DNA from: a virus
Taxonomy: Duplodnaviria > Heunggongvirae > Uroviricota > Caudoviricetes
Virus record (IMG/VR): IMGVR_UViG_2675903650_000007
Coordinates: 1 to 8,487 of that record
DNA length: 8,487 nt
Strand: one strand, 5' to 3'
The translations under genes and the position numbers were made by a program. This document shows positions 1 to 8,487 of this stretch, one piece after another (position 1 is the first letter of the stretch; every line of letters begins with the position of its first letter). A model generated the notes under the pieces. The model saw only the letters and a list, made by a program, of their open reading frames with translations, did no database searches and was not told the DNA's origin.

Positions 1-8
1 ACGCCATA

Positions 9-32
9 TCACTCTCCTTTGATGCGAATGCC
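9..32. repeat. 24-bp direct repeat, copy A (3' junction of Ea22-like paralog 2)
   Basis: TCACTCTCCTTTGATGCGAATGCC is identical at 9-32 and 852-875. On the minus strand it encodes GIRIKGE, the stop codon and the SD of the next gene. Confidence 0.85.
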
Positions 33-530
33 TGTTGCAATGCTGTTTATGATGCTGTCAGTGCATGGGGTAGAAAGCTGGGCATCTCCAGCAATTTTCA
101 TGACCTCAACATCTGCATATCGAATACCGAGGTGTATCAGACCGGCTATGCCTGACTTAAGTCGAACATTTTCCATAAACAGATCTTTTTCCCGCTGTTT
201 AGCGGCTTCCAACTCCATCGACAATTTTTCCAACTGCTCTTTATGCTTCTTGTATTCCTGATACGCGTGCCAAGACTGACCTTTGCGCACACTATCAGTG
301 ATATCAGCAACCTGCTCCGGTGTTAGCGTGGTCAGTGGCTGTGCTGGAAAAATCATCACCTTCCCGGCATCCCAATCAAAACCCGCCTGAATTGACTGAA
401 CCTCAACTGATGGTGTTGAACCGATGCGACCAGGCGAATGAACAACGATCGTTACATCCATATCGCGACGATGGCTGTGGTTGTTGGACAAAATACGATT
501 CACCAACTCAGAAAATTTGGAAAATTTCAT
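9..530 (-). CDS. Ea22-like family prophage protein, paralog 2 (173 aa from ATG at 528-530; the six-frame ORF extends to 659)
   Basis: Minus-strand ORF. Start chosen at MKFSKF because GAGGGA sits 5 nt upstream and the ATG overlaps the upstream gene's stop (ATGA). The C-terminus ...GIRIKGE* is identical to that of the 249-aa Ea22-like protein at 852..1601, encoded by the same 24-bp DNA. Central coiled-coil-like segment ([32 protein letters not shown]). Family assignment is from memory. Confidence 0.5.
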
Positions 531-850
531 GCTGATCCCTCTTTTTCTCCCCGGATAATTCTGTTGCACACATCCACACACTCGTCGCAGATGAAAACGG
601 CGTCCCCAGCAATTAACTTTTTGACGGCGTACTGGGATTTGTTGCAGAAGCTGCAACAAAGTGTTCGCCTGACTGATAAGGATGGAGCGCCAGATGTCAG
701 CCGCTCCATATCGTTCTTGCGACGCAATATCACACGGCTGAACTCAACCAGTTTCTCCGGGGATATCTCCTCCTCCGTAGCAAGCGCCTCTAATCGTTCG
801 AGTATGTGGAAGGCTTTTTTCTGGGTAATTGCAGAATGCGATGTGGTCAT
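527..850 (-). CDS. Small protein with C-terminal ClpX-type C4 zinc-finger domain (107 aa)
   Basis: Minus-strand ORF. Start at ATG 848-850 with GGAGAG 4 nt upstream, chosen over the in-frame ATG at 892 which has no good SD. The C-terminal segment [35 protein letters not shown] closely resembles the N-terminal zinc-binding domain of ClpX (CSFCGKSQHEVRKLIAG..ICDECVDLCNDII), including all four Cys. Stop overlaps the start of the downstream gene (ATGA). Confidence 0.7.
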
Positions 851-851
851 C

Positions 852-875
852 TCACTCTCCTTTGATGCGAATGCC
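852..875. repeat. 24-bp direct repeat, copy B (3' junction of Ea22-like paralog 1)
   Basis: Same 24-mer as 9-32; flanking sequence diverges on both sides. Confidence 0.85.
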
Positions 876-1601
876 AGCGGCGCGGGAATCATTCCATCGC
901 TTTACTTCTTCACGAATTACGTCAATGCATTCTTTCGAATCCATTAGGTAATCTTCATCAAAAAGACGTTCCTGTTCGTTTTCTATCGCAACAATGATTG
1001 CTTCAACTAACTTTTGTGCCTGAGAACCACTTTCTAACTCTGCAATGCGCTTCTCTGCGGCTTCCAGATTCTCGCGCATATCGTCAACGTACTCGACCAG
1101 AGATCCGCCAGCAGGAATTTCGCATTCCTCGACCAGTTGGAAGTAGATATCAGCTGCGGCCCGTGTGTTGCTATGCCTAGCGTCGCCCATCTCACCTTCA
1201 CGAAGAGCATCGCGTTCGGCGGTAAGATTGGCTATTTTGCTGTCTTTGCCTTCCAGCTCAACGCGCAGCCTCCCAACCGTAAGCGCAATATCCTCGTTCT
1301 CCTGATCGCGGCTTTTGATGTATTGCAGGTTTCTTTCCCGTTCATCCAGCAGTGCCAGCACGGTAGCCGGGTTAGCCTCTGCTATGAATTCAGCGTTTGC
1401 ATAAGCCTGAGCATCTGTTTCAACCAGGCAGTTAACGTGACATTCTGCAATTACGCCACCGGGTTCTCCTTTCCATTTTTGACAAACAAAAACTCCTGTT
1501 AAATTGCCGTGTTGGTTAACAGATGTATGCCCTACGATGTAGCTTCCTTTAGTTGCTTTCTCTGCCTTTTCACGCAGTGCCTGATAGTTAATCTCGCTCA
1601 C
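852..1601 (-). CDS. ead/Ea22-like family prophage protein, paralog 1 (249 aa)
   Basis: Minus-strand ORF with GTG start at 1599-1601 overlapping the upstream stop (GTGA) and GGAGG 7 nt upstream. N-terminus [19 protein letters not shown].., acidic coiled-coil middle, C-terminal ..GIRIKGE* shared with 9..530. Family assignment is from memory of E. coli prophage annotations. Confidence 0.6.
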
Positions 1602-1822
1602 TCTTCATCCTCCAAGTCGGCAACGGCGTCCATCACATCAGAACCGCGAATAACCTCAAAAGCACGGCAGGCCATTTGAAATACCAGTTGCTCTTGCGGG
1701 TGAGGAGACTCCCAATATTTGAAGCCTGGGCGATGCGTGTACCCCATCATTGAATAAAAATCACCAGCAAGCTTAATCGCGGCATCGACAAGCTCTCTGT
1801 TAGTCATTCTTTTTCCGCTCAC
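1598..1822 (-). CDS. Hypothetical small prophage protein (74 aa, acidic C-terminus)
   Basis: Minus-strand ORF. GTG start at 1820-1822 overlaps the upstream stop (GTGA) and has GGAGG 6 nt upstream. An alternative ATG start at 1805-1807 would give 69 aa. No recognised domain. Confidence 0.5.
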   Translation of the reverse strand: MSGKRMTNRELVDAAIKLAGDFYSMMGYTHRPGFKYWESPHPQEQLVFQMACRAFEVIRGSDVMDAVADLEDEE

Positions 1823-2250
1823 TGGTTGCCTCCTTTGCGAAGCTGGGCAGCAAAGTCAACTAACCACTCAGTCATTTCAACCTTCCCTACCAGGTCTGAA
1901 CCAGGGTACATACAGCAATCACTCTGCGCCGCTTTGAAATCCTTATACTCATATTCTTGGGCCACCAGATTTTTTGCAGCTTCTATAGCAGCATCCACCC
2001 CCTGCGCCCGGACTTCAGCCAGGAAAGCATCAGTGGCTGGCATATTTCCTGTTGCCTTCATTGCCTCCAAAATAACCAGAACGCCATCTCGCCCAATCTC
2101 CTCGCAGATAACCTCGGTGCTGTCGCCAACAACATCGCAAAATGCCTGAACTGCTTTACGAGCCAGCGCATCTTCCGCCCTGTGAAACGCCTCGCGGTTG
2201 AAATTTTCATATCCCGTCATTGGACCGGCAATATAAACTCTCACCCTCAC
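1819..2250 (-). CDS. Hypothetical protein with nucleoside 2-deoxyribosyltransferase-like (DUF4406-type) N-terminal motif (143 aa)
   Basis: Minus-strand ORF. GTG start at 2248-2250 overlaps the upstream stop (GTGA) and has AGGAGG 7 nt upstream. The N-terminus VYIAGPMTGYENFNREAF matches the K-IYIAGPMTG motif of DUF4406 / deoxyribosyltransferase-like phage proteins, but the remainder is longer and did not match my recollection of that family. Confidence 0.55.
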   Translation of the reverse strand: MRVRVYIAGPMTGYENFNREAFHRAEDALARKAVQAFCDVVGDSTEVICEEIGRDGVLVILEAMKATGNMPATDAFLAEVRAQGVDAAIEAAKNLVAQEYEYKDFKAAQSDCCMYPGSDLVGKVEMTEWLVDFAAQLRKGGNQ

Positions 2251-2639
2251 TCCATCACCTCCTGAAAGTTTCCCCGATAGAACGCCAGCACACGCTGCAT
2301 AACTTCGCTCCTCCTGCTCTCACGACAAATTATGTTCTGCCGTCTGTTGTAACGACGTATTTCTCCGTCAGGTAACTTTCGAATCAGTGTCGGGTCAGCA
2401 GCCTTCTCCGGTGTCTTACGCCATACGCGATACGCCTGCTCTGATGGAAATACCCCGCAACCAGAGAGCCAGACATCACCACTGGCCGCAAGCGCACCAG
2501 ATAAACGACGAATAGCGGTCTTACTGACACCCGTTTTATCTGCCAGTTGTCGAAAAGTTTCTCGTCCGCTCAGGCGCACGAATTCCACAATGCGCGCCTT
2601 CACTTCTTCCCGCTCTTCTGGTGTAAATACTTTTGCCAT
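2247..2639 (-). CDS. Hypothetical prophage protein (130 aa)
   Basis: Minus-strand ORF. ATG at 2637-2639 with GGAGG 5 nt upstream; the ORF track's TTG at 2654 is rejected. Basic, possibly nucleic-acid-binding (..KTGVSKTAIRRL.. resembles an HTH). Stop overlaps the next start. Confidence 0.55.
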   Translation of the reverse strand: MAKVFTPEEREEVKARIVEFVRLSGRETFRQLADKTGVSKTAIRRLSGALAASGDVWLSGCGVFPSEQAYRVWRKTPEKAADPTLIRKLPDGEIRRYNRRQNIICRESRRSEVMQRVLAFYRGNFQEVME

Positions 2640-2654
2640 AAGCGCCTCCGGCAA

Positions 2655-3380
2655 TCACTTTTCCGACACAATACGACCGGATGAATCGACAATCTGTCGA
2701 ACAATATCCCGGTGCTTGTTCAGCTCCCGCAGCGCGGCGCAGACTCGCTCCCACTTCTGAACCTGACCTTTTGCCCGGCGCAGCTCGCGGTTAGCCACAT
2801 GCAGCGATGGTAAAATCAGACCATCCGGATGTTTTCTGGTGAACGACGGCTGTGACTGCACTGTGACCGCCACACTTTCCGTTTTTATTTCTTCCTGTGT
2901 TTCTGCTTCCCGGACAGGTAACGCAACACCTGCTGGCTGAGGAAAGGCTTTACCATCGGTTTCCGCTACGGATGCAGCTTCCGGCTCTGCCGGTAAATCA
3001 GCGCCCGGTATGCAGTAACGAAATTTACCGCCCTGATTCACGCGAATCAGACGCCCTTTGCTGATTGCCATGGCCAGCGATGAATTCGCCCGGCGGGAGG
3101 TAATCCCGAACATCAGTGCCAGCTCATCCGCCGTTTGTGGGCCATGTTGTTCAATCGCCTCAGTCAACATTTGCGCTGTCACTTTCGGTACCGGTGACAC
3201 CGGTTCACTTTCACCAGCCTGAATCAGCCACCACATCGAACCCTTGTTATCCGCTTCACCGCGGCGCTTCAGTTTCCACAGTTCGTTGACCGCATCTTCA
3301 CGGCTGATTCCAAGGCGGGCCGCCACTACCTGTGAAGAGGCTCTTTTCAGTGCTTTCAGTGCGTCAAATACGGTTTCCAT
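2655..3380 (-). CDS. Hypothetical prophage protein with two tandem winged-helix-like segments (241 aa)
   Basis: Minus-strand ORF. ATG at 3378-3380 with GGAGG upstream. Two similar segments (..[25 protein letters not shown].. and ..[28 protein letters not shown]..) suggest an internal duplication of a small DNA-binding module. Sits immediately after the helicase-loader gene, where lambdoid phages carry accessory nin/ren-type genes. Confidence 0.6.
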
Positions 3381-3409
3381 TAAAATTTCCTCCGGATAAA
3401 AATTACTTC

Positions 3410-4150
3410 TCAGTTCCTGTGCTGGCTGACGTTCGGACGCCAGCTCTCCCAGTTAAACGTCACCCAGCGACCACCGTTCATGGACATGCGGTCCATTACC
3501 CGCTCGCCGAGAAGTGTATTCATCGCTGCATGATTAAGATTTGTCAGCATCCCCACACTGAGTAACGATGCCGTTCTACGGTCAACAATCTGATTCAGCG
3601 TGACCTGCTCATTACGCGTATCCCGTTGCATGCCAATTTCATCCAGTACCAGCAGGTCAACGCCACACAATCCCTGCAAAAATTTTTCGCCCGAGTTTTT
3701 GTTGTCGTAGCTGCCATGTAACGCTAGCATCACATCCGCCACTGTTATCACAATCACACTGCGACCTTTCGCCAGAAGGTGGTTGCCAATAGCCGCCGCC
3801 AGGTGGTTTTTTCCTGTGCCAGGCCTGCCACTGAAAACAAAATTCGTACAGCCGCCTTCCAGCTCTGCCGCAATGGATTTCGCCTGACTCAGGGCATGGC
3901 GCTGACCATCGTTCTGCACCCGGTAGTTACCGAACGTACACTTCCGGTGAAGCGGCTGGATACCGGAACGGTTAATGATTTTTTCAACCCGCGTCTGATG
4001 ATTCAGACGATTAACCTCCTCGCTTCGCTTACGCCCTTCAGCAAGCTGCCATTCCCGCCACTCCGCCACCGTACGGTACGGAGGGATTGCATCCTGCGGC
4101 ACAAATCTGCTGACTCTTGCCAGAACACCACCTGACGTAATGTTTTTCAT
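3410..4150 (-). CDS. DnaC-like replicative helicase loader (AAA+ ATPase, IstB/DnaC family; 246 aa)
   Basis: Walker [16 protein letters not shown] and Walker B LLVLDEIG motifs in the arrangement typical of DnaC and the Rac YdaV-type loader. ATG at 4148-4150, 6 nt after the stop of the initiator gene. Confidence 0.9.
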
Positions 4151-4156
4151 GATGCG

Positions 4157-5110
4157 CTACCCCCTGAACCCCGGCGGAATTTCGGTATCCGGTTCAGAAA
4201 TATGATTCACGCAACGCTGCGCGGGCGAACGCCCCAGGCGAATTACCAGTTCATCCCATTTTTCCCGGAGTTTTGCCGGACTCATGATGTTTTTTACCCA
4301 GAACGAATCCCGTTGAACACGCCCAAACATTTCACAAATCTGTCGGTGACTACGTCCATCCAGCATACGCATCATGCGCACATCATTCGCCCAGGTCGTC
4401 CAGTTAGGCTCTCTGGGGCGTGATACCTCCCCATCATCACTGGCGGCCTGTTCATACAACGCAACAACCCGTCCCCAGATCCACTGTGCACACGTCAAAT
4501 CCTCCCGGGTTCCCCACTGTCGCTTCGGTACATTCCAAGTATGCGCATCCGGGTGTTTCTCCAGAAATCGCTCAACTGGTGATGATTGTTTTTCGTCCGG
4601 CAGTGAAACGTCTGGACAAGAAGATCTTTTATCTGACGGATCAGGTTTTAATACTGACGGATCGGGGTCAATCATCGCCCCCCTAATCCGCAGTTTTTTA
4701 TCAACAGTTGATCCATCAACATTTGACGGGCCAACCGTTGAGGGGGCAATATTTGACGGGTCATTTTTTGCCGGGCTAATTTTTCTTTTTGGTTTATATG
4801 CCTCACGCGCCGCCGCTGCAGCTGCTTCAAGTTTTTCCACATTAAGCCGATAGATATTGCTTACGTTACGCCCACCGACCTTACGCTCTTCCTTCGTCAG
4901 CCAGCCCTCTTTCGCCAGTTCTGCAATAGCAGATTTAACGGTGGATTCACTTCTTGCACCGATCTGACGCCGGATAGTTTCAATGGCAGGCCATGACACG
5001 CCCTCGTCATTGCTGTAGTCTGCAAGACGGGCCATAACTGCCACCCTGGATAAGATCATGCCGGTGAAGGCGCACCCTTCCCAGACAAGACCATGAAGCT
5101 TGCTGCTCAT
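4157..5110 (-). CDS. Replication initiator / replisome organizer, O-like (317 aa from ATG 5108-5110)
   Basis: Minus-strand ORF directly upstream of the DnaC-like gene. N-terminal winged-helix-like domain, Ala-rich and Pro/Asp/Ser-rich linker, C-terminal domain. The linker DNA contains an iteron cluster and AT-rich tract, as lambda ori sits inside O. The ORF track's GTG at 5125 is rejected in favour of the ATG with GGGGG 4 nt upstream. Confidence 0.8.
   Translation of the reverse strand: MSSKLHGLVWEGCAFTGMILSRVAVMARLADYSNDEGVSWPAIETIRRQIGARSESTVKSAIAELAKEGWLTKEERKVGGRNVSNIYRLNVEKLEAAAAAAREAYKPKRKISPAKNDPSNIAPSTVGPSNVDGSTVDKKLRIRGAMIDPDPSVLKPDPSDKRSSCPDVSLPDEKQSSPVERFLEKHPDAHTWNVPKRQWGTREDLTCAQWIWGRVVALYEQAASDDGEVSRPREPNWTTWANDVRMMRMLDGRSHRQICEMFGRVQRDSFWVKNIMSPAKLREKWDELVIRLGRSPAQRCVNHISEPDTEIPPGFRG
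4634..4800. repeat. Putative origin of replication: iteron cluster plus AT-rich tract inside the O-like gene
   Basis: Direct repeats TGACGGATC (4634-4642, 4655-4663), TGACGGGCC (4724-4732), TGACGGGTC (4754-4762), a degenerate TGAGGGGG (4739-4746) and an inverted near-copy GATCCATCA (4710-4718). Immediately followed by AT-rich tcattttttgccgggctaatttttctttttggtttatat (4763-4800). Confidence 0.6.
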
Positions 5111-5132
5111 AAAACCCCCGAACACCGTGCTT

Positions 5133-5558
5133 TTAGTGCATCACCACAGCATTCCCTGCCGGGCCGCCGCGATTTATCTGGTCATACAAAACGACCGCTG
5201 ACGCAACAAAATCGTCGACATCCTTCACCAGCCGATCCCGCCGTTCGACAATCTCCCGGTAATACTCAGAACTGTGACTGCGCATACGGGCCACCAGCAA
5301 AGGCGGCATCGCCTTTTCGATCGCCGGTAACAGCGCCTGAATTTTTTCAACAGCATCAGGCGTATCCTTCTCCACCCAGCGGAAAATTTTCTGGGTATTA
5401 CGGGCCAGGGCTTCCGGATGGCTGTCGTCGTACAGTTCCGGGAACGTCATCCCAAGTTCGAAATAAGTCCGGGCTATTTCAGCTGCAGGCACTTTCTCAC
5501 CATCAGGATATGCCCAGGCATTCATCGCCATGCGGATGTGTTCATGTTTGATTTTCAT
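5133..5558 (-). CDS. YdaT-like protein (Rac-prophage YdaT family) in the cII position (141 aa)
   Basis: Minus-strand ORF immediately downstream of the cro-like gene, start overlapping its stop (ATGA at 5555-5558). The N-terminus MKIKHEHI.. matches my recollection of E. coli Rac YdaT. It does not resemble lambda CII. Confidence 0.65.
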   Translation of the reverse strand: MKIKHEHIRMAMNAWAYPDGEKVPAAEIARTYFELGMTFPELYDDSHPEALARNTQKIFRWVEKDTPDAVEKIQALLPAIEKAMPPLLVARMRSHSSEYYREIVERRDRLVKDVDDFVASAVVLYDQINRGGPAGNAVVMH

Positions 5559-5818
5559 GAATCAACTCCCAGCGCGGGTTGTGTGTTAGCCTGATAGTCA
5601 ACAGGTATGCCATCGGTTGGGTTGGGGTAAGTACTGCTATCAATCTCGTGCGGGGTCACTACCCACCCTGTTGCTTCACACCAGCGTAAAACTTTCCCCC
5701 CCGTAAGTTTCGCCCGTCCAGTAATAACATGGCTTACCATCCCTTGGGTTACCCCAACAATTTCAGCAAAATCTTTCTGGGTTATACGGGAATGATGCAA
5801 ATATTCTCCAAGATTCAT
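5555..5818 (-). CDS. Cro-like / YdaS-family HTH regulator (87 aa)
   Basis: First gene of the minus-strand operon, divergent from the repressor gene. HTH-like segment ITQKDFAEIVGVTQGMVSHVITGRAKLT. RBS GAGGTG 4 nt before the ATG at 5816-5818. Confidence 0.7.
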   Translation of the reverse strand: MNLGEYLHHSRITQKDFAEIVGVTQGMVSHVITGRAKLTGGKVLRWCEATGWVVTPHEIDSSTYPNPTDGIPVDYQANTQPALGVDS

Positions 5819-5847
5819 TGTTCACCTCATGTTATGTGACCATGAAT

Positions 5848-5890
5848 ATTAATAGCATTGTTATTTTTAAAAGTAAATAGCACTGCTATT
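5848..5890. promoter_or_regulatory. OR-like operator pair and divergent promoter region (PR-like on minus strand)
   Basis: Two 15-bp palindromes 25 bp apart: AATAGCATTGTTATT (5851-5865) and AATAGCACTGCTATT (5876-5890). On the minus strand a near-consensus -10 TATTAAT (plus coordinates 5848-5854) and -35 TTTACT (5872-5877) with a 17-bp spacer overlap the two operators and point into the cro-like gene. A plus-strand repressor promoter is expected between 5885 and 5920 but cannot be placed confidently. Confidence 0.65.
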
Positions 5891-5925
5891 TCAAAGAGAT
5901 TAATAATCTTATTAGAATTGAAGGT

Positions 5926-6426
5926 ATGAAAAGAAAACCCCTGTCAGAGATCGACCTGCAAGCCGCCCAGAGACTGAAAGAAATCTGGACGACGAAAAAA
6001 ACTCAACTTGGGTTAACCCAAGAGCGTGCGGCAGAAATTCTGGGTTTTTCGACACAAGGGGCAGTAAGCCATTATCTAAATGGTCAGACACCTTTAAATC
6101 TAGAGGCTGTTATCAAGTTCGCTGGGTTGCTACAAGTTCCGCCTGAGTCAATTAGACCAGATATGGCAGACTTGTTACGAATTGTAAGGATGTACCCCCA
6201 AGAACTGCAGCAGGATAATGTTGTCGCTTTACCCGCAGAGATGGAACAATCGGAAAACGAACTTCCGTTTAATATAGAACCTATAGAGCGAGATTTGATC
6301 CAGACGTTCAGGGCTTTCCCAAAAGAAGACAAAGAGAAAATGCTTAAGGAAATGAAGGAGAAAAAAGAATCAATTGAAGAAACCGTTGCGCGGTGGCTAG
6401 AGGCGCAAAAAGGTCTTCGCGCCTAA
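5926..6426 (+). CDS. Prophage repressor, XRE-family HTH, no S24 peptidase domain (DicA/RacR/PaaR2-like; 166 aa)
   Basis: Divergent from the cro-like gene across an operator-containing intergenic region. HTH motif LTQERAAEILGFSTQGAVSHYLNGQ. The C-terminus is Lys/Glu-rich helical and lacks a LexA/CI-type autocleavage domain. Followed after 17 nt by the antitoxin gene, so the three genes are probably co-transcribed. Confidence 0.8.
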   Translation: MKRKPLSEIDLQAAQRLKEIWTTKKTQLGLTQERAAEILGFSTQGAVSHYLNGQTPLNLEAVIKFAGLLQVPPESIRPDMADLLRIVRMYPQELQQDNVVALPAEMEQSENELPFNIEPIERDLIQTFRAFPKEDKEKMLKEMKEKKESIEETVARWLEAQKGLRA

Positions 6427-6443
6427 TCTGAGGAGGTTAGAAC

Positions 6444-6635
6444 ATGAGTACAGTCCTTTCCCCGATAATTTCAGAATTTGAAACAATCGAACAAGAAAAC
6501 AGCTATAACGAATGGTTACGCACCAAAGTGGCAGCAAGCCTCGCAGACCCCCGTCCTGCAATTCCGCATGACGAAGTAATGGCTGAAATGGAAAACCTTA
6601 TTGCGCAAATAGCTTCGACGAACAGGAGTGAGTAA
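6444..6635 (+). CDS. Small antitoxin (PaaA2-like) of a ParE-type toxin-antitoxin pair (63 aa)
   Basis: Strong RBS GAGGAGG 6 nt upstream of the ATG. Small acidic protein (..SEFETIEQENSYNEWLR..) whose stop overlaps the toxin start (TAATG at 6633-6637). The sequence resembles my recollection of PaaA2 from E. coli O157 prophages. Confidence 0.75.
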   Translation: MSTVLSPIISEFETIEQENSYNEWLRTKVAASLADPRPAIPHDEVMAEMENLIAQIASTNRSE

Positions 6636-6925
6636 TGCTGCCCATTTTATGGCTACCTTCTGCGCGTGATGATTTGCGTCAGATCGTAGCCTATATTGCC
6701 AAGGAAAACCCTCCCGCTGCACGTAGACTAAAAATACGCATTGAAACATCAGTTTTGTCACTTACTGAACACCCTTACCTGTATCCACCAAGCGAAAGAG
6801 CTCTAGGCCTTCGTGAGATAGTGACCCATCCTAACTACATAATACTTTACCGAGTAACAGCATCTAACATCGAGATCGTAAATGTAGTTCACTCACGAAG
6901 GCAGTATCCAAACAAAAGCTGTTAA
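6635..6925 (+). CDS. parE: ParE/RelE-superfamily toxin (ParE-like; 96 aa)
   Basis: Size and motif pattern typical of ParE toxins (LP-LW..A..DL..I..YIA.-NP.AA..L...I......L...P.-G......L-LRE.V-...YI--YRV....IEI-.V-HSRR). Translationally coupled to the preceding antitoxin gene. Confidence 0.8.
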   Translation: MLPILWLPSARDDLRQIVAYIAKENPPAARRLKIRIETSVLSLTEHPYLYPPSERALGLREIVTHPNYIILYRVTASNIEIVNVVHSRRQYPNKSC

Positions 6926-6939
6926 TCATTCCTACCAAC

Positions 6940-6964
6940 AACCACCTTCGGGTGGTTTTTTTTT
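6940..6964 (+). terminator. Rho-independent terminator of the repressor-antitoxin-toxin operon
   Basis: Perfect hairpin AACCACC-TTCG-GGTGGTT (stem 6940-6946 / 6951-6957, GNRA-like loop) followed by a T-run through 6964, 15 nt after the toxin stop codon. Confidence 0.8.
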
Positions 6965-6980
6965 CTTACCTCCAAAAAAC

Positions 6981-7022
6981 AATAGCATTACTATTTACAG
7001 AATAAAATAGCAGTGCTATTGT
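6981..7022 (+). promoter_or_regulatory. OL-like operator pair with PL-like promoter
   Basis: Second pair of the same 15-bp palindrome, again 25 bp apart: AATAGCATTACTATT (6981-6995) and AATAGCAGTGCTATT (7006-7020). Candidate -35 TTTACA (6994-6999) and -10 TATTGT (7017-7022) with a 17-bp spacer overlap both operators and point rightward. Confidence 0.6.
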
Positions 7023-7199
7023 TTATTCATCACCCACCCTCCCCACAGAACGCAGGGCAATACTTCGAGTTACCAGGCAGTGGTCAGGGGGTAAGTAGCC
7101 AGCCCGAGGCGTAAGAACATGACGGCAGGGTTCAACTTTAATAACTATGCAGCAGGTTTTTGTTCCGCTACCCCGGCGTTAAGGGGAAATGAGGTCAGC

Positions 7200-7352
7200 A
7201 TGGATACTATCGATCTTGGCAACAGCGAATCTCTGGTATGTGGCGTGTTCCCCAACCAGGACGGTACGTTTACCGCGATGACGTATACCAGAAGCAAAAC
7301 GTTTAAAACTGAAGCTGGCGCGCGTCGCTGGTTAACCAGAAACACTGACTGA
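7200..7352 (+). CDS. YdaF/YdfA-like small prophage protein (50 aa)
   Basis: RBS GAGG 5 nt before the ATG at 7200. MDTIDLGNSESLVCGVFPNQDGTFTAMTYTRSKTFKTEAGARRWLTRNTD resembles the ~51-aa first gene of the Rac/Qin PL-type operons as I recall it. The ORF track's longer version from ATG 7119 has no SD. Confidence 0.6.
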   Translation: MDTIDLGNSESLVCGVFPNQDGTFTAMTYTRSKTFKTEAGARRWLTRNTD

Positions 7353-7363
7353 TGAGGTTGACG

Positions 7364-7702
7364 ATGGAATTTAAAGATTTACCTCCTTCAATCCAGGAGA
7401 TTGCAGCACACACACTTCGTCATCGTCTGAACGAACTTGAATTGGAATCGGTAACAAAAAAAGACACTGATAATATGGCTCGTAATGTGCGCGATGCGTT
7501 TACTGGGCTGTTTTCAGATACAGCTTTAAATATCCATGGCACAGAGGATACAGCAAAACAATTTGCAGAAAAAGAAGTGGAAGATCCCAGTTCAAAGAGC
7601 CAGAAACAGCCAAACAACCATGAAATTAACGAACTGCTTCTGGCAACAGGCTTCATAAATATTAACGAATATGAACGCCGTAAAAAAATGTTATCTGATT
7701 AA
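7364..7702 (+). CDS. Hypothetical acidic prophage protein (112 aa)
   Basis: ATG at 7364 with GAGG 5 nt upstream; an in-frame ATG at 7352 overlaps the preceding stop and would add 4 aa. No recognised domain. The 3' end overlaps the convergent gene 7691..7885 by 12 bp. Confidence 0.55.
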   Translation: MEFKDLPPSIQEIAAHTLRHRLNELELESVTKKDTDNMARNVRDAFTGLFSDTALNIHGTEDTAKQFAEKEVEDPSSKSQKQPNNHEINELLLATGFININEYERRKKMLSD

Positions 7703-7885
7703 TCCATCAAGATATCTTTTTAGCATCAGCGTTTCTACGTTATTAAAACCATCAGATTTTAACATAGCTTCGATTCGCTGATTTAAATTGCCAACTAACT
7801 GTTGATACTGAGTAGATGGAAGCATGTGTACCAGCTCCTTGAGAACACAATAACATGCACCAAGTTTTAACTCCTGCTCTGACAT
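7691..7885 (-). CDS. Hypothetical small protein, convergent to the PL-like operon (64 aa)
   Basis: Minus-strand ORF with start ATG at 7883-7885 and GGAGGA 4 nt upstream. MSEQELKLGACYCVLKELVHML.. has no recognised family. The longer ORF-track version (88 aa, to 7957) lacks an SD. Confidence 0.45.
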   Translation of the reverse strand: MSEQELKLGACYCVLKELVHMLPSTQYQQLVGNLNQRIEAMLKSDGFNNVETLMLKRYLDGLIR

Positions 7886-8227
7886 TTTATCCTCCATTGA
7901 GGTTACTGGTTGAGAATGGAGACCTCTCGTGACAGCGTGTGGTCGTGCGCCGGACACGGATAAGAATCCGGCACTGACAGTTTACTGAAAGGATATTTCC
8001 CTGAAAAGTCAGACCATAACGCGAAAGCGCACGGCGAGGTAGCTGGTTCATAGATAGCCTGTCGTTAAATTTTCGTCGACCGTGCGCTTCCGGTTGTGGC
8101 AATCCGCGAAATGGCGCGGCGGTAAGTATGGCTGGGGTTTCCTCCATTGCTCCAGAAAATGCACCGGGTTGTCAGGTTGACCATACGCTTAAGTGACAAC
8201 CCCGCTACAACGCCCTCTGTTATCAAT

Positions 8228-8285
8228 TTTCTGGTGACATTTGGCGGTATCAGTTTTACTCCGTGACTGCTCTGCCGCCCTTTTT
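8228..8285 (+). ncRNA. dicF: DicF-like small regulatory RNA
   Basis: tttctggtgacatttggcggtatcagttttactccgtgactgctctgccgcccttttt matches the ~53-nt DicF sRNA of the E. coli Qin prophage almost base for base, from memory with about one difference, including the GC-rich 3' stem and U-tract. Confidence 0.8.
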
Positions 8286-8290
8286 AAAGT

Positions 8291-8442
8291 GAATTTTGTG
8301 ATGCGGTGAATGCGGCTCAGCGCACGCGGAACAGTTAAAACAAGCGGTCTTTTACGGGCGTAACGGGAATGCTCTGTATCCGGCGTTAATTGTTAACTGG
8401 TTAACGTCACCTGGAGGCACCAGGCACCGCATCACAAAATTC
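8291..8442. repeat. 18-bp perfect inverted repeat enclosing 116 nt, immediately 3' of DicF
   Basis: GAATTTTGTGATGCGGTG (8291-8308) is the exact reverse complement of CACCGCATCACAAAATTC (8425-8442). On a DicF read-through transcript this would form an 18-bp dsRNA stem. Confidence 0.7.
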
Positions 8443-8487
8443 ATTGTTGAGGACGCGATTGTCACGAACGGTGCAATAGTGATCCAC

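Follow-up and report, generated by a model that had tools for sequence, protein, structure and literature searches.

Repeats in the linker-coding DNA of an initiator gene as the predicted replication origin of a Rac-like lambdoid prophage

The initiator gene and the repeats in its linker-coding part

We analyzed a stretch of viral DNA of 8,487 bp (positions 1 to 8,487 of IMG/VR virus record IMGVR_UViG_2675903650_000007; here called the window) for a cluster of short repeats that lies inside a replication initiator gene and had been predicted from the sequence to be an origin of replication. The gene encodes 317 amino acids (aa) and occupies positions 4157 to 5110 on the minus strand; it is present in the list of open reading frames (ORFs) and as a RefSeq coding sequence in an identical Escherichia coli locus. 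RefSeq places its start at the ATG at 5110; the mechanically called ORF begins upstream, at an in-frame GTG at 5125. We favor the start at 5110 because all homologues open with MSxKL. Directly downstream, also on the minus strand, is a gene for a DnaC-like helicase loader (3410 to 4150). Profile matches assign it to NCBIfam PRK12377 (475 bits; cutoff, 389), to Pfam IstB_IS21, and to PHROG 50, "DnaC-like helicase loader"; its score against the DnaC equivalog, 303 bits, falls under the cutoff of that model. The loader is the presumed partner of the C-terminal domain of the initiator.

In an AlphaFold (AF2) model, the initiator consists of a winged-helix N-terminal domain (N-domain; aa 1 to 104, encoded at 4799 to 5110), a disordered linker (about aa 105 to 175; 4586 to 4798), and a helical, λ O-like C-terminal domain (C-domain; aa 176 to 317), all on the minus strand. 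The predicted local distance difference test (pLDDT) score is below 50 for aa 109 to 175, and the helix at aa 55 to 67 of the model is the recognition helix. The whole protein matches PHROG 391, "replication initiation O-like." Its C-domain is 43% identical to λ O over aa 198 to 297 (BLASTP E value, 1e-25), with an hhalign probability of 99.7%; in λ, it is this portion of O to which P binds. The N-domain has no detectable similarity to λ O, and a profile-sequence alignment reached the C-domain alone. HTH_36 was the sole Pfam match at the N terminus; neither a Phage_rep_O-type N-domain nor a Rep_3 domain was matched by Pfam in the window initiator. Foldseek searches with the N-domain returned only generic ArsR/MarR-type winged helices (E value, 4e-3 or weaker), and a sequence search found no solved structure of a relative. 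The description of the protein as O-like is therefore apt for the C-domain and fails for the N-domain. As judged from these comparisons, the initiator shares its architecture and its C-domain with λ O, but its domain for origin binding is of another kind. Genes of this type carry no more than the label "helix-turn-helix domain-containing protein," and the RefSeq and phage records that we inspected mark no origin at the initiator.

The original prediction described four to six copies of TGACGG(A/G)(T/G)C, spaced about 15 to 30 bp apart, in the linker-coding part of the gene. Exact matches to this motif occur three times in the window (4634, 4655, and 4754), all within the linker cluster; 0.17 matches were expected from shuffled sequences, and none of 200 shuffles reached three. 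When up to one mismatch is permitted, the count in 4634 to 4762 rises to six (at 4634, 4655, 4710 [minus strand], 4724, 4739, and 4754), versus three in all the rest of the window (8.3 kb). The window has eight TGACGG cores, four of them inside 126 bp (Poisson P, about 5e-7). Similarly, all three perfect matches to GAYCCGTCAR and six matches at 8 or more of the 10 positions sit in 4633 to 4762; the largest cluster among 200 shuffles was five. The copies and their clustering were thus borne out. A single class of repeat with loose spacing was not: the six or seven sites in 4633 to 4778 fall into two classes, a strict 15-bp array of palindromes (class A) and a pair of GATC boxes 21 bp apart (class B).

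The class A array (4709 to 4778, minus strand) has five units with a 15-bp period, each containing a perfect or imperfect 10-bp palindrome, TGACSSGTCA. A repeat search gave the 15-bp tandem period at about 4702 to 4784, and Tandem Repeats Finder gave a period of 15 at 4717 to 4784. In plus-strand letters, the cores are TGATCCATCA (4709 to 4718), TGACGGGCCA (4724 to 4733), TGAGGGGGCA (4739 to 4748), TGACGGGTCA (4754 to 4763), and a degenerate TGCCGGGCTA (4769 to 4778). Class A units encode the pentapeptides NDPSN, IAPST, VGPSN, and VDGST. An inverted repeat (GTCAATCATCGCCCCC and GGGGGCAATATTTGAC; 4667 to 4682 and 4742 to 4757; 81% complementary) brackets part of the array and gives a long hairpin in the single-strand fold of the region (z = -4.8); we ascribe the strength of this fold to the palindromes of which the array consists.

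Class B comprises two minus-strand copies of GATCCGTCAG (plus strand, CTGACGGATC) at 4633 to 4642 and 4654 to 4663. Both match the family consensus at 10 of 10 positions; together they encode DPSV..DPSD, and each contains one GATC site for the Dam methylase. Four GATC sites lie in 4623 to 4713, versus 0.22 expected (P, about 9e-5). Besides the two in the boxes, a third (4623 to 4626) belongs to a junction that is conserved as DNA in the codon alignment (4595 to 4632, minus strand; ..GATAAAAGATCTTCTTGTCCAGAC....CCGGAC, encoding KRSSCPD..PD). As had been claimed, the repeats translate as Asp-Pro-Ser: DPS appears three times (aa 117 to 119, 150 to 152, and 157 to 159), accompanied by APS, GPS, and DGS variants.

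Conservation of the linker DNA and its association with the N-domain

We compared 80 loci with the window-type N-domain, one genome per species across the Enterobacterales, including Edwardsiella, Morganella, Providencia, Proteus, Yersinia, Rahnella, Erwinia, Pantoea, and other genera; 78 of these loci entered the codon alignment. Every full-length member has 15-bp pentapeptide repeats in the linker, in 1 to more than 10 units, and the repeats are followed by a family block, …GATCCGTCAGTA-AAYTCAAAAC-AA-GATCCATCAGATAAA…. At conserved residues, the normalized entropy of synonymous codons was 0.83 in the N-domain (66 columns) versus 0.20 in the linker (27 columns; Mann-Whitney p = 6e-13). Synonymous sites are thus essentially saturated in the N-domain and frozen in the linker, with freezing starting at aa 116. 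Linker serines are encoded by TCA or TCT 85% of the time, versus 28% in the rest of the gene, and linker lysines by AAA 93% of the time, versus 65% elsewhere in the gene. In the DPSV of class B, Asp is GAT in 80 of 80 loci, Pro is CCG or CCA, Ser is TCA in 80 of 80, and Val is GTA in 70 of 80; the information content of class B is near its maximum at all three codon positions. At the junction (4595 to 4632), the conserved Cys and Asp are encoded by TGT and GAC in 100% of cases. In the arrays of Edwardsiella, the position equivalent to Ser varies among Ser, Pro, and Leu (TCA, CCA, and TTA), with the nucleotide pattern retained.

Since synonymous sites are frozen in a linker that AlphaFold models as disordered, the alignment indicates that the DNA itself, and not the protein, is under selection. 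Frozen DNA beneath a disordered, freely substitutable peptide is what marks a cis-acting DNA element. An overlapping gene was rejected as the source of the frozen third positions; alternative frames are stopped in most of the 78 loci, and the best is open in 10. No internal promoter or terminator was found in 4400 to 5000, and no Rfam family matches the repeat region.

The repeats accompany the N-domain. One N-domain with its repeats is fused to at least two unrelated C-domains, and the gene that follows the initiator is DnaC-like (the window and locus L085), λ P-like (loci L009 and L063), or PerC-like with no loader (an SfIV-like locus). Conversely, where an unrelated N-domain is joined to the same C-domain, the repeats found there are unrelated too. 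One case is a mosaic relative, locus L006 (NZ_AP027256; 1953 to 2158), which has a Phage_rep_O-type N-domain with the same C-domain and DnaC-like loader. Its iterons are five λ-like 23-bp palindromes, CATCAGGTCAAAATGGCCCGATG, followed by an A/T-rich, perfect 12-bp tandem of five copies of ACAGAGAATACA (peptide TENT); by sequence, the layout is a close copy of that of ori-λ. We had considered the TENT tandem as the iterons of this locus and dropped the idea, as the five palindromes lie upstream of it. The breakpoint between the two cassettes is at SCPDASQPD, and it is at the junction (4595 to 4632 in the window) that different N-domain cassettes join the shared C-domain.

The array core also changes with the recognition helix. 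In 119 loci with the helix STVRT, there is a mean of 2.1 TGAYSSRTCA cores and 0.0 TGAACGTTCA-like cores; the 21 loci whose helix is STVIT or STVIS have means of 0.0 and 3.0, respectively. Across these loci, then, the core follows the helix, STVRT occurring with TGACSSGTCA and STVIT with TGAACGTTCA. The STVIT subfamily, the third by type of N-domain (loci L103, L107, and L111 and about 18 more viral loci), has 15-bp units of TCTGAACGTTCAGAA with the perfect 10-bp palindrome TGAACGTTCA as the core, and it keeps the invariant block GATCCGTCAGTAAAYTCAAAAC, although these loci were found via a class B 22-mer and the presence of class B in them is partly due to ascertainment. The exact 22-mer of the sister subfamily occurs in at least 120 IMG/VR viral contigs, in 111 of 120 inside the initiator family; the rest are cut by contig ends. 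A looser version of the N-domain motif recovers these 111 of 120 viral loci, whereas a strict regular expression had wrongly flagged 28 as lacking the domain.

We conclude from these comparisons that the N-domain and the repeats behave as one specificity cassette. Its mobility, the unrelated repeats found with other N-domains, and the covariation of core and helix all point, indirectly, to the repeats as an initiator-binding element. Within the cassette, class A is plastic in number and sequence, and class B is invariant, GATC included.

Two further loci are of interest here. Shigella phage SfIV (L088; 2501 to 3933) has a 52%-identical initiator with the same repeat type, no downstream loader, and a PerC-family gene in its place; since SfIV-type members have no loader, some of the family must presumably recruit the host helicase-loading machinery directly. 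In the K-12 Rac prophage (L007; 4472 to 4563), YdaU has a DUF1376 N-domain and shares only its extreme C terminus (…IPPGFRG) with the window initiator. The ydaU gene contains four mid-gene copies of AAnCAGATGTTCAA (spacings of 33, 33, and 12 bp), which could plausibly be the iterons of Rac oriJ.

The predicted origin and alternative explanations

Given the frozen synonymous sites, the behavior of the repeats as part of a cassette, and the covariation of core and helix, comparison strongly backs the prediction that the cluster is an origin. We consider it likely that a Rac-like lambdoid prophage has its replication origin in these linker repeats, inside the stretch of the initiator gene that encodes the disordered linker. 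Rightward-type early transcription, from the cro-like gene through the YdaT/cII-like gene to the initiator, would both make the initiator and cross the origin. The winged-helix N-domain, probably as dimers, would bind the 10-bp TGACSSGTCA palindromes that recur every 15 bp at 4709 to 4778, the array sequence setting origin specificity and the number of units differing between relatives. The invariant module at 4615 to 4663, a pair of GATCCGTCAG boxes at a spacing of 21 bp that are separated and followed by A/T-rich DNA, would be where the duplex opens, and the class B boxes might serve as anchor binding sites too. The λ O-like C-domain would then recruit the DnaC-like loader encoded by the neighboring gene, together with host DnaB. 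Through the GATC sites of the invariant boxes, Dam methylation and SeqA may have an influence on firing. Throughout, the sequence would also have to specify a linker that the protein tolerates, which would explain the pentapeptide DPSxV repeats. The transcription and N-domain-binding steps of this scheme come from sequence and homology; we infer the remaining steps.

Where unwinding would begin is a separate matter. The original prediction placed it in an A/T-rich stretch of about 40 bp that follows the repeats. This tract exists (4760 to 4799, on the N-terminal side of the array; 30% GC; encoding KPKRKISPAKN): it is the lowest-GC 40-mer of the gene, and the 14th lowest nonoverlapping 40-mer of the window (lowest 3% of all). 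It also abuts the array, whose last unit decays into it. We nevertheless rejected it as a conserved unwinding element of the family. Relatives average 43% GC at this offset in the window subfamily and 51% in the larger SDxSK subfamily, which lacks the Lys-rich segment encoded there, so the tract is a subfamily-specific feature. Synonymous freezing begins only downstream of it. Moreover, iterons are followed by the A/T-rich region along the gene in both λ and L006, and 4760 to 4799 lies on the side opposite to the A/T-rich region of λ and the A/T-rich tandem of L006. A single GC minimum is conserved from one subfamily to another, and it lies immediately past the first class B box: a block of about 35 bp (27 to 34% GC; 4615 to 4653; minus strand, GTATTAAAACCTGATCCGTCAGATAAAAGATCTTCTTG) that is moderately A/T-rich, interleaved with the class B boxes, between and just 3′ (in the gene sense) of them, and on the downstream side of the array. 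In the family-wide profile, it has the lowest 30-bp GC content (mean, 0.27 in the SDxSK subfamily and 0.32 in the window subfamily; 0.30 in the window itself). Because it is a conserved minimum on the λ-like side, whereas 4760 to 4799 is unconserved, on the opposite side, and before the start of freezing, we prefer 4615 to 4653, with moderate confidence, as the candidate site for unwinding and helicase entry. That the origin and iterons are correct and unwinding nonetheless begins at 4760 to 4799 appears unlikely.

Two other explanations dispense with an origin altogether. The conserved DNA could be a different cis element, either a recombination "boundary" for the exchange of modules or a messenger RNA (mRNA) structure that regulates translation of the initiator or the loader. 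It does lie at a mosaic junction that joins different C-domains and loaders, the SCPD..PD junction is frozen as DNA, and the single strand folds unusually well. However, a boundary sequence needs no internal repetition 6 to more than 12 times, would not shift its core together with the recognition helix, and would not account for unrelated N-domains bringing their own unrelated repeats, while an array of palindromes will fold well in any case. Structure in the mRNA or single strand was set aside as a cause; the invariant block offers no covariation to test, and the region has no Rfam, promoter, or terminator match. We regard a cis element of another kind as improbable. Still less credible is that the repeats exist for the sake of the protein, a low-complexity DPSxV/SDxSK linker that arose by replication slippage, with no separate role for its DNA. 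In favor of this, each unit preserves the reading frame and yields a pentapeptide, the number of units varies as expected of slippage, and the perfect 12-bp TENT tandem of L006 resembles plain slippage. Yet conservation is as high at third codon positions as at the first two, in genera with saturated N-domains; the DNA pattern is retained where amino acids differ; and only weak protein constraint is expected in a linker predicted to be disordered. This explanation strikes us as very improbable.

Several points weigh against an origin that works in the manner proposed. With a 15-bp period, neighboring sites would lie on almost opposite sides of the helix, in contrast to classical iterons, which are phased at about 21 to 24 bp. 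Both A/T-rich candidates are only about 66 to 70% AT, and neither stands out window-wide. Class B may be no initiator-binding site at all; being invariant in the STVIT group despite the different array core, it is perhaps not an ordinary specificity iteron, and the ascertainment noted above affects its presence in that group. The source prophage holds several pseudogenes in the RefSeq annotation, so the window's copy of the predicted origin may no longer fire. Finally, no origin of this initiator family is described in the searchable literature. A full-text search for the repeat sequences returned unrelated primers only, and the Eru classification of Shiga toxin (Stx) phages does not cover this replication module.

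The invariance of class B suggests a more specific reading, which we put forward tentatively and consider rather doubtful. The origin would have two parts: a fast-evolving array of palindromes spaced at 15 bp, variable in copy number, that sets initiator specificity, and invariant boxes, GATC-initiated and A/T-tailed (GATCCGTCAGTAAAYTCAAAAC / GATCCATCAGATAAAAAA), that form an unwinding and helicase-entry element gated by Dam and SeqA. The invariant module, common to subfamilies of different array specificity, would then be no ordinary iteron and would be analogous to the GATC 13-mers of oriC. Like the class B boxes, the oriC 13-mers start with GATC and continue into an A/T-rich tail; oriC and P1 oriR have GATC-rich unwinding elements. 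If this reading were true, the firing of a phage origin would be coupled to the methylation state of the DNA. Adjoining the class B boxes is an oriC 13-mer-like sequence, GATCTTTTATCTG (4623 to 4635, plus strand), which matches 9 of the 11 specified positions of what we take to be the 13-mer consensus, GATCTnTTnTTTT.

Comparison with known origins and the source prophage

In λ and Stx phages, iterons inside the initiator gene are established, with repeated palindromic sites and an A/T-rich segment (PMC7466680); Stx phages 933W and P27 have six-iteron origins of the ori-λ type (PMC7466680). The predicted origin resembles ori-λ in its place in midgene, where the linker separates an N-domain for origin binding from a C-domain that recruits the loader, and in a C-domain homologous to that of λ O. 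It differs in its repeats. The λ sequence (our locus L090) has four palindromes of 18 to 19 bp at a spacing of about 20 to 24 bp and then a 40-bp AT-rich region, whereas the window has 10-bp palindromes at a 15-bp period, in an array whose length varies, and a separate, invariant pair of GATC boxes. No ori-λ iterons (at least four of 18 to 19 bp, of the ATCCCTCAAAACGAGGGA type) were found at the window locus. The partner of the window initiator is DnaC-like and not λ P, although some relatives with the same N-domain and repeats have a P-like gene. Because iterons, N-domain, and loader all differ, the window origin, as predicted from sequence, is not ori-λ. The proposed parallel with the λ origin inside O thus stands for its placement in the initiator gene but not for the side of the A/T-rich tract originally proposed, which is N-terminal and opposite to that in λ.

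A palindrome to the right of the AT-rich region of λ (39162 to 39183; about 563 to 584 in L090), TTCGTCAGAGAATTCTGGCGAA, resembles by eye only a conserved CCCGTCAGAATCTGGCGGG that precedes the GATC boxes in SDxSK loci (L013 and others) and is not present in the window's own subfamily. Common descent of the origin modules may have left this likeness.

The gene 18 origins of phages P22 and L, which have been inferred, contain four repeats of about 20 bp in P22 and six imprecise 11-bp repeats, TGTCCAACGGA, in L (PMC8022706). These distantly related lambdoid initiators likewise have repeats of their own within the coding region, but the repeat sequence and the initiator family are different, and they are paired with a DnaB-type helicase (gp12) rather than a DnaC-like loader. 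The Rac origin oriJ (ydaU-ydaV), mentioned in PMC3945230 and PMC11014345, shares with the window the gene order racR-like, ydaS/cro-like, ydaT, initiator, DnaC-like ydaV and the initiator C terminus …IPPGFRG. YdaU differs in its DUF1376 N-domain and its four copies of AAnCAGATGTTCAA; because N-domain and repeats differ, we take the window origin to be distinct from oriJ, with a different origin specificity. The iteron origins of theta plasmids (RepA, RepE, and π) also combine a winged-helix initiator with repeated sites beside an A/T-rich region. In contrast to these, the window initiator has no Rep_3 domain, and the window sites lie inside the coding region and are palindromes at 15 bp, not direct repeats of 17 to 22 bp phased at about 22 bp. 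Class B boxes in the family lie 21 to 24 bp apart, about two helical turns; those of the window are 21 bp apart.

By sequence, the predicted origin is very probably a further case of lambdoid iterons inside the initiator gene, with a repeat design not described before. Knowledge of the origin and its specificity rule would improve prophage annotation, and the rule (STVRT with TGACSSGTCA versus STVIT with TGAACGTTCA) would help predict which coresident prophages or satellites share initiators. The predicted arrangement is also a clean natural example of one DNA stretch serving both as a protein linker and as an array of binding sites, and the invariant GATC boxes offer a specific lead on methylation control of phage replication.

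The window is, by its gene content and matches, part of a Rac-like lambdoid prophage of E. coli. It is 100% identical to a prophage beside rspB in E. coli DETEC-S792 and 98% identical to a prophage of an O157:H7 strain. Relatives at the DNA level (about 87% identity) match in 1,855 of 5,426 complete E. coli genomes. The initiator family as a whole is spread over Enterobacterales prophages and many viral contigs. Among phage records, megablast found nothing beyond one 62-bp match, and relatives there were reached with tblastn. Upstream of the initiator, the ORF list, profile matches, and RefSeq identify a YdaT-family gene in the cII position (5133 to 5558, minus strand), a cro-like gene (5555 to 5818, minus strand), and a cI/RacR-like repressor gene (5926 to 6426, plus strand). 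The early region thus runs from the cI-like gene through the cro-like gene, the cII-position gene, and the initiator to the DnaC-like loader, and it also takes in DUF1627 and DUF977 genes; this context is, by sequence, that of a lambdoid replication module.

Just downstream of the repressor gene (6444 to 6925, plus strand) are a small ORF and a toxin gene (6635 to 6925) that RefSeq names RelE/ParE family; the upstream ORF is a RelB antitoxin in the RefSeq annotation of a relative. The sole Rfam match of the window is a full-length DicF antisense small RNA at 8229 to 8280 on the plus strand (RF00039; 77 bits; gathering score, 48). Next to it in the source genome comes dicB, downstream, as in the dicBF operon of Qin and of the Rac type.

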